Source: Escherichia coli (GTDB taxonomy: Bacteria; Pseudomonadota; Gammaproteobacteria; Enterobacterales; Enterobacteriaceae). From it: 64,000 nt of DNA. The stretch is taken from NCBI RefSeq assembly GCF_016026235.1, contig NZ_CP065613.1; one strand, 5' to 3'. Of the stretch, positions 15,152 to 15,900 are shown in pieces (the first letter of the stretch is position 1; the number at the start of each line of letters is the position of its first letter). Below the pieces are notes generated by a model. That model was not told where the DNA came from. It was given only the letters and a program-made list of their open reading frames with translations, and made no database searches. The position numbers and the translations under genes are program-made.

Positions 15152-15900
15152 GATGCACTCCCGACTGGCGTTTTCAGCCCGGAGTAGTTCAACAGGCACC
15201 AGTTCGCCAGCGTCAGTATCTCTTCAGCCGCCAGCGCATCACTGCGATATTCACCTACTGGTTGCTTAGCCGCCAGGCATTCAGCCATCGCTTCATCACG
15301 ATGAATGAGCATCGGCAGTAATCGGCGCTGGCTTTGCAACCAAAGCTGGTAAATATCGTCCTGAACCTGACTGCCAATACGGAAGTTATTAATCAAAATA
15401 TGTGCGCCATCCGGCAGCGCTTGCTGATGCAGTCGGATATGGCAGTTGGCATCCACATTGACGATTGCCAGCGAGTGATCGCACAAACTCAGCAGCTGGT
15501 GGGTTATCTGCGAGGCATCACGCGGTAAGTCGATTAAAATCCACTGGTAACGCCCGCTGGCTTTTAGTTGCTGTAAGCCGGAGCAAATATCGCTCAGCCG
15601 GGTTTGCCAGTGCTGTGGATTTTCTTGTTCTTCAATGGATAACTGACCAAAAGGCAGCAAATCGAGCTGCGAGGTGTAGCGCAACCCAGCGTCACGCCAG
15701 TCCTGGCCATCCAGCATCGCTCTGGCCCAGCCCTGACGGTGGGTAAAATCAACATTAAATGACAGGCGCAACAAGTTGTCCGGGCAGGCATCGACCACCA
15801 GGACATTTTCTCCCAACATTTGTAATGACCAGGCTAATGCGGCGGTGATGGTTGTTGTCCCCACGCCTCCCCGCACCCCCTGCAATCCCAGTACGGCCAT
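15148..15900 (-). CDS. bcsQ: Cellulose biosynthesis protein BcsQ (MinD/ParA-like ATPase), apparently intact
   Basis: 250-aa ORF; codons 1-7 read ATG GCC GTA CTG GGA TTG CAG, so codon 6 is TTG (Leu) and not the TAG I recall for K-12. Walker-type N-terminus GVRGGVGTTT. Confidence 0.9.
   Translation of the reverse strand: MAVLGLQGVRGGVGTTTITAALAWSLQMLGENVLVVDACPDNLLRLSFNVDFTHRQGWARAMLDGQDWRDAGLRYTSQLDLLPFGQLSIEEQENPQHWQTRLSDICSGLQQLKASGRYQWILIDLPRDASQITHQLLSLCDHSLAIVNVDANCHIRLHQQALPDGAHILINNFRIGSQVQDDIYQLWLQSQRRLLPMLIHRDEAMAECLAAKQPVGEYRSDALAAEEILTLANWCLLNYSGLKTPVGSAS

Follow-up and report, generated by a model that had tools for sequence, protein, structure and literature searches.

Whether a strain of Escherichia coli can make cellulose depends on several bcs genes, and this locus raises the question of whether its bcsQ is intact where that of K-12 is not, and what else in the cluster is broken. 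In the window, as we call the whole 64-kb stretch of DNA analysed, all nine bcs genes (R, Q, A, B, Z, C, E, F and G) are present in two divergent operons. The minus strand carries pdeK, bcsC, bcsZ, bcsB, bcsA, bcsQ and bcsR, while bcsE, bcsF and bcsG lie on the plus strand, with three ldr/rdlD copies, yhjV and the dpp operon after them. The original prediction held that bcsQ begins with ATG GCC GTA CTG GGA TTG CAG at 15880-15900, that its codon 6 is the site which is polymorphic in K-12, that the bcsQ stop overlaps the bcsA start, and that an amber codon in bcsG is the only visible lesion of the cluster. The features needed for the first part of the question are the following.

15148..15900, minus strand: bcsQ, a full-length ORF of 250 aa, encoding the MinD/ParA-like ATPase of the cellulose secretion system (NF007460).
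15883..15885, minus strand: codon 6 of bcsQ, TTG (Leu), which is TAG in K-12 (T>A at window position 15884) in the alignment with MG1655.
15901..15913, minus strand: bcsQ initiation region, with AGGGG at 15913-15909, 8 nt and then the ATG; identical in K-12.

Read on the minus strand, the sequence runs ...CAA AAG TAG GGGATTGG TGA ATG GCC GTA CTG GGA TTG CAG GGG GTG CGG..., with the bcsQ ATG at 15900-15898 and the first seven codons spanning 15900-15880. The AGGGG overlaps the TAG stop of bcsR (15914-15912), and the 8 nt after it end in an in-frame TGA (15903-15901). Since this TGA adjoins the ATG on its 5' side, a longer N-terminus of BcsQ is impossible. The identity of the gene was confirmed by the NCBIfam equivalog NF007460 (541.8 bits against a cut-off of 399), with residues 1-250 aligned on positions 1-250 of the 250 in the model, and by the BcsQ family model TIGR03371 (298 bits, cut-off 157.85). 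The protein is identical at 249/250 residues to BcsQ of strain 1094 in PDB 6YBU (Lys249 in the latter, Ala249 in the window), in an alignment that begins at residue 1, and the gene sits between bcsR and bcsA, its place in the bcsRQABZC operon. The glycine-rich nucleotide-binding loop, G8-V-R-G-G-V-G-T-T-T17, is present after the N-terminal strand, and the MinD and ParA models align to the protein from residues 4-10 onward. Among E. coli, E. albertii, S. bongori, S. enterica and C. koseri, residues 1-16 are conserved, residues 4-16 are invariant, and the invariant L6 is encoded by TTG or CTG. An Rfam scan of the whole window gave no match in or near bcsQ.

A bcsQ start other than the ATG at 15900, or a K-12 site other than codon 6, is very improbable. 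Other in-frame start codons do occur at codon 6 (TTG), codon 9 (GTG) and codon 13 (GTG), and the NCBI pipeline starts the gene at GTG codon 9 in genomes bearing TAG. However, alignment to the BcsQ family models and to the solved protein begins at residue 1, conservation across genera includes residues 1-9, and an in-frame TGA stands immediately before the ATG. The difference from K-12 also falls on exactly nucleotide 17 of the ORF, matching the published 17 T>A (PMC5944007). On the strength of the TGA, the alignments from residue 1 and the match at nucleotide 17, we rejected this alternative, and the start and the polymorphic site proposed in the original prediction both stand.

Base-by-base comparison, a direct reading to which no chance model applies, shows bcsQ of the window and of K-12 MG1655 (NC_000913.3, b3534) to be identical at 751/753 nt. 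One of the 2 differences is nucleotide 17 (window 15884), giving TTG at codon 6 in the window and TAG in MG1655, whose record annotates the gene as a pseudogene. The other places Asn at residue 172 in the window and Asp in K-12; Asn172 is also found in the functional BcsQ of strain 1094. The TTG/TAG change of K-12 has been described as 17 T>A (PMC5944007), and strain AR3110, which is W3110 with codon 6 changed from TAG to TTG, makes cellulose (PMC7397504, PMC5014196). The K-12-type null allele is absent from the window, and because codon 6 encodes Leu, a full 250-aa BcsQ ATPase would be made.

In its bcsQ, the window strain is therefore like strain 1094 and AR3110, both with TTG at codon 6, 1094 also sharing N172; AR3110, as a K-12 derivative, further agrees with the window throughout bcsR and the bcsR-bcsE control region. 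In both of these strains, however, bcsG is not truncated, whereas it is in the window. The K-12 b3534 locus is the same gene with the same junctions and the same ATGA overlap with bcsA, but it has the codon 6 stop and D172 where the window has no stop and N172.

To assess how frequent the intact allele is, a 61-base stretch centred on bcsQ codon 6 was looked for in 5,426 complete E. coli genomes. The TTG form was found exactly in 3,551 of them and the TAG form in 349, most of the remainder differing from the window's 61-mer at one other base; Nissle has two mismatches to the K-12 form. We inspected 64 of the 349 TAG genomes (the 60 best matches and 4 spread through the rest), and all look like K-12 laboratory derivatives by their K-12-type names, their sizes or their MG1655-like coordinates, with no natural isolate found among these 64. 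WCHEC035053S1G0 carries the TAG allele under a clinical-looking name, but its locus is of K-12 type and its genome size close to that of J53, so that it too probably derives from K-12. A truncated bcsQ, which may or may not be the K-12 mutation, is reported in 37% of sampled ST10 genomes (PMC10881479). Judged from these genome sequences, an intact codon 6 is the species default, an ordinary and already published wild type. The best explanation is that bcsQ of the window is the ordinary ancestral allele and that the K-12 TAG is a derived null allele, reportedly known since 2013 from Serra's work and strain AR3110. The strain thus differs from K-12 at the single base that makes K-12 cellulose-negative, as do most E. 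coli.

The search also brought out a feature of genome annotation. In TAG-bearing genomes, the NCBI pipeline often annotates an intact 242-aa "BcsQ" from GTG codon 9, as in NZ_CP034595.1, where bcsQ is placed at 8039-8767 of the retrieved locus, against 15234-15986 in the MG1655 locus. A protein started there would be without the first strand, which precedes the nucleotide-binding loop. The automatic start at codon 9 therefore hides the K-12 lesion, and automated screens for broken bcs genes could miss it.

The second part of the question is whether bcsQ and bcsA are translationally coupled, and it concerns these features.

15148..15151, minus strand: ATGA overlap, made of the bcsA ATG (15151-15149) and the bcsQ TGA (15150-15148); also in K-12, S. 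enterica and C. koseri.
15158..15162, minus strand: GGGAG, ribosome-binding site of bcsA, 6 nt upstream of its ATG and still inside bcsQ, near the end of that gene.
15156..15186, minus strand: predicted RNA hairpin pairing the bcsA ribosome-binding site with an upstream CUCC (folding compared with shuffles).
15654-15670, 15404-15420 and 16004-16022, minus strand: weak terminator-like hairpins in bcsQ and bcsR.

The overlap of the bcsQ stop with the bcsA start at 15148-15151 can be read directly on the minus strand, as had been predicted. Both the GGGAG and the 4-nt ATGA recur with unchanged spacing in S. enterica and C. koseri, while the surrounding codons differ. Since the junction of K-12 is exactly as in the window, the overlap does not set the window strain apart. 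ATGA overlaps also join bcsE to bcsF and bcsF to bcsG. In the trpE-trpD and trpB-trpA pairs of E. coli, stop and start codons share bases and coupling has been proven by experiment. In those pairs the downstream ribosome-binding site lies inside the upstream gene, as at bcsQ/bcsA, where the layout speaks for coupling; we found no direct test for bcsQ/bcsA in the literature. Given the overlap and the internal ribosome-binding site, translational coupling can reasonably be inferred. Ribosomes finishing bcsQ could reinitiate on bcsA or expose its start, and an early stop in bcsQ, such as that of K-12, would then reduce the translation of bcsA. With the same stop, some 735 nt of RNA would go untranslated and be open to premature termination, and the essential BcsQ protein would be lost as well. 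The K-12 defect is probably the sum of these three effects, namely BcsQ loss, lost reinitiation on bcsA and termination in untranslated RNA. In the window strain, none of the three would arise.

Two kinds of candidate signal in the bcsQ RNA were examined. The hairpin at 15156..15186 folds at -21.9 kcal/mol (z = -1.96), with 7/200 shuffles folding equally well, and could hide the ribosome-binding site of bcsA in E. coli. The evidence from it is weak, because the pairing of this site is not predicted in the Salmonella or Citrobacter junctions, and it was not counted for coupling. Rho-loading regions and intrinsic terminators within bcsQ, considered as a source of polarity, gave weak signals only: C-rich, G-poor stretches in the bcsQ RNA are modest (C/G up to 1.57 in 78-nt windows), and 4 terminator-like hairpins were found in the bcsQ/bcsR region where 1.6 +/- 1.2 were expected. 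These hairpins match the in-silico terminators mentioned in PMC7439463, and they could add to polarity when bcsQ is untranslated.

The remaining genes decide whether an intact bcsQ would be of any consequence, and were delimited as follows.

12533..15151, minus strand: bcsA, cellulose synthase catalytic subunit, 872 aa, intact (NF008558 over 1-872 of 872; PDB 9FMV over 1-872).
5615..12522, minus strand: bcsB (10183-12522), bcsZ (9070-10176) and bcsC (5615-9088), intact, of K-12 lengths and stop-free.
15912..16100, minus strand: bcsR, the first of the operon's genes, 62 aa and the same as in K-12 (NF040717, BcsR).
16101..16372: divergent bcsR-bcsE control region, 272 bp, with no differences from MG1655.
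16373..18132, plus strand: bcsE (16373-17944) and bcsF (17941-18132), intact and joined by ATGA.
18129..19808, plus strand: bcsG, phosphoethanolamine transferase, with TAG at codon 247 (18867-18869); its start overlaps the bcsF stop as ATGA.

The bcsA equivalog and the solved BcsA align from residue 1, which supports the ATG at 15151 as the start of this gene. As in bcsQ, no internal stop interrupts the ORFs of pdeK and of bcsC, Z, B, A, R, E and F, and all match their K-12 counterparts in length. The bcsG amber thus proved to be the only visible lesion of the cluster, as had been claimed, where lesion means nonsense and frameshift changes; missense changes exist beside it. The synthase core would be made, with bcsR, Q, A, B, Z, C, E and F open, and we expect it because these eight ORFs are open and the control region is identical to that of K-12. 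Expression at levels like those of AR3110 is a sensible expectation from the sequence, the regulators csgD, dgcC and rpoS lying outside the window.

Among complete genomes FDAARGOS_943 is the closest; over 24.2 kb (window 3097-27286), 13 substitutions and one 3-nt indel separate it from the window. With K-12 as outgroup, six changes belong to the window lineage: bcsG W247*, BcsZ P157L, BcsE V253A and three synonymous ones. In the assembly GCA_900449985.1, a stretch of 8,741 bp is 100% identical to window 14129-22869, and the window probably derives from that strain or a near relative of it. All 13 substitutions relative to FDAARGOS_943 are transitions (G/A or C/T), a pattern which may be due to chance or to a mutator or deamination bias.

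Two other readings have to be weighed against this account. The ATGA may be mere gene packing, with bcsA translated independently from its own GGGAG and the K-12 defect caused by BcsQ loss, by Rho-dependent transcriptional polarity, or by both; we regard this as quite possible, although we lean away from it. BcsQ is needed for cellulose secretion: strain 1094 turns cellulose-negative after non-polar deletion of bcsQ and is rescued in trans by bcsQ on a plasmid (PMC5727187, PMC7439463), so the loss of BcsQ is sufficient on its own. The work on the BcsR-BcsQ complex and its role in secretion was done with the same 1094 protein, which is 99.6% identical to that of the window (PMC7439463, PMC5727187). 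The ribosome-binding site of bcsA is a good one at ideal spacing, the hairpin covering it is not conserved, and both BcsQ function loss and polarity have been considered possible for K-12 (PMC5944007). On the other hand, the 4-nt overlap and the position of the ribosome-binding site are conserved across three genera. The group that repaired the allele, with reference to Serra 2013, ascribes to the stop a polar effect on the synthase genes downstream of it (PMC4238805). The ATGA overlaps at bcsE/bcsF and bcsF/bcsG suggest a general design for fixed protein ratios. We keep coupling as a probable component of the K-12 defect.

It is also possible, though we consider it less likely than not, that bcsQ is intact and the synthase is nevertheless silent or inactive, through missense changes or regulators outside the window. 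The lineage-specific BcsZ P157L and BcsE V253A could act in this way, as could A93T and R855C, by which BcsA differs from K-12. Complete bcs ORFs are found in BL21 and H10407, which are yet cellulose-negative on calcofluor plates (PMC5944007), and non-polar bcsG deletions in AR3110 abolish the cellulose macrocolony morphotype and leave a curli-only form (PMC4287979). Against this, the exact BcsA, BcsB, BcsZ, BcsC and BcsE proteins of the window each recur on about 30-39 public contigs, and are for that reason natural alleles. BcsQ is nearly identical to the functional 1094 protein, and the control region is that of the parent of the cellulose-proficient AR3110. We are confident in reading the window as a natural-isolate locus with an ordinary bcsQ, an expected synthase core and bcsG as its sole broken gene.

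Codon 247 of bcsG is TGG in K-12 and FDAARGOS_943. The 246-aa product of the window spans only positions 2-205 of the 518 in the family model, so that most of the conserved region of BcsG, including its C-terminal periplasmic catalytic domain, is missing. The cluster consequently lacks the intact BcsG with a periplasmic catalytic domain by which a type II, phosphoethanolamine-cellulose system is recognised. What remains is presumably the N-terminal domain embedded in the membrane, without the catalytic nucleophile Ser278.

Apart from the effect in AR3110, strain 1094 no longer secretes cellulose once bcsG is removed by non-polar deletion (PMC5727187). Transfer of W247* into S. Typhimurium 14028 reduced both the binding of calcofluor and the patterning of colonies (PMC6611641). 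Strain D23580 of S. Typhimurium ST313 lineage 2, which has the same W247* at the same codon as the window, still makes moderate cellulose, which its authors credit to the N-terminal half of BcsG stabilising BcsA (PMC6611641). As in the window, the remaining bcs genes of D23580 are intact; it belongs to a different genus, however, and also has csgD promoter mutations, csgD being outside the window. By analogy with D23580, the synthase core of the window strain would be made, and its cellulose would be unmodified and probably reduced, with an altered matrix.

The bcsG amber is not confined to this strain. The 246-aa truncated BcsG is found exactly on at least 1,000 public contigs, and W247* occurs on two bcsG haplotypes, that of the window and a K-12-like one differing at 22 other positions. 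Among the 5,426 complete genomes, the 61-mer of the K-12-like amber was found exactly in 54 and that of the window haplotype in none. The latter count had pointed to a private mutation, a reading overturned by the exact-protein look-up and by locus retrieval. W247* is also listed for the ST95 strain TUM18673 in Supplementary Data 1 of PMC10881479. The bcsG pseudogene characteristic of the invasive S. Typhimurium ST313 lineage 2 is again W247*, here by G>A within an identical TCC TGG (PMC8018540, PMC6611641).

In both E. coli and S. enterica, the context TCC TGG of codon 247 forms a CCTGG Dcm site. Deamination of the Dcm-methylated cytosine on the opposite strand of CCTGG converts TGG to TAG. 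We infer from this context that Dcm deamination may be the origin of bcsG W247*. For a test of the hotspot, 5 N-terminal bcsG codons in Dcm context were compared with 10 control codons outside CCWGG that are also one transition from a stop, and the measure was the number of contigs carrying the exact truncated product. The Dcm-context products were found on 479, 214, 829, 101 and at least 1,000 contigs, against 28-475 for the control products. With medians of 479 and 68.5, respectively (exact one-sided Mann-Whitney p = 0.0023), the excess is suggestive rather than conclusive, because contig counts mix mutation rate, clonal expansion and sampling and are not independent events.

We tentatively propose, with rather less than even confidence, that W247* is no random lesion but the commonest outcome of a Dcm hotspot, active in E. 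coli and possibly in Salmonella, that it has arisen independently on at least two E. coli haplotypes, and that it could act as a recurrent one-step switch from phosphoethanolamine cellulose to reduced, unmodified cellulose, amplified by selection. Such a role is possible because the membrane half of BcsG, reported to stabilise BcsA, is kept and bcsRQABZC is intact. Convergent loss of bcs function in E. coli, Shigella and Salmonella has been described (PMC10881479), and a single truncating bcs mutation is found there as in bcsG of the window. In the part of that source available, the mutations are not linked to Dcm sites, and the window lineage is not among the named sequence types, as far as could be told.

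Some other features of the window were noted.

20051-20116, 20534-20599 and 21017-21082: rdlD copies.
31290-38434, minus strand: complete long polar fimbriae operon lpfA-E and an IS4-family transposase, between eptB and yhjX.
53895-54666: IS1-like element 3' of glyQ, with an InsB-like ORF at 54147-54650; 91% identical to the IS1A copy of FDAARGOS_943.

The rdlD antisense RNAs belong to three tandem ldr toxin/rdlD units (window 19811-21183), of which K-12 has one; their number varies among strains, from one to four in related loci. In the fimbrial operon, LpfA, LpfB, LpfC and LpfE scored above the NCBIfam cut-offs and LpfD below. To our knowledge, the gene order of K-12 has no lpf genes or IS4-family transposase between eptB and yhjX.

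Taken at the level of the organism, the cellulose genotype is best judged over the whole bcs cluster and not from bcsQ alone, and in this strain it is the bcsG lesion that decides. The recurrence of this amber at a Dcm site may be of interest to work on the convergent loss of the biofilm matrix in invasive enterobacteria.
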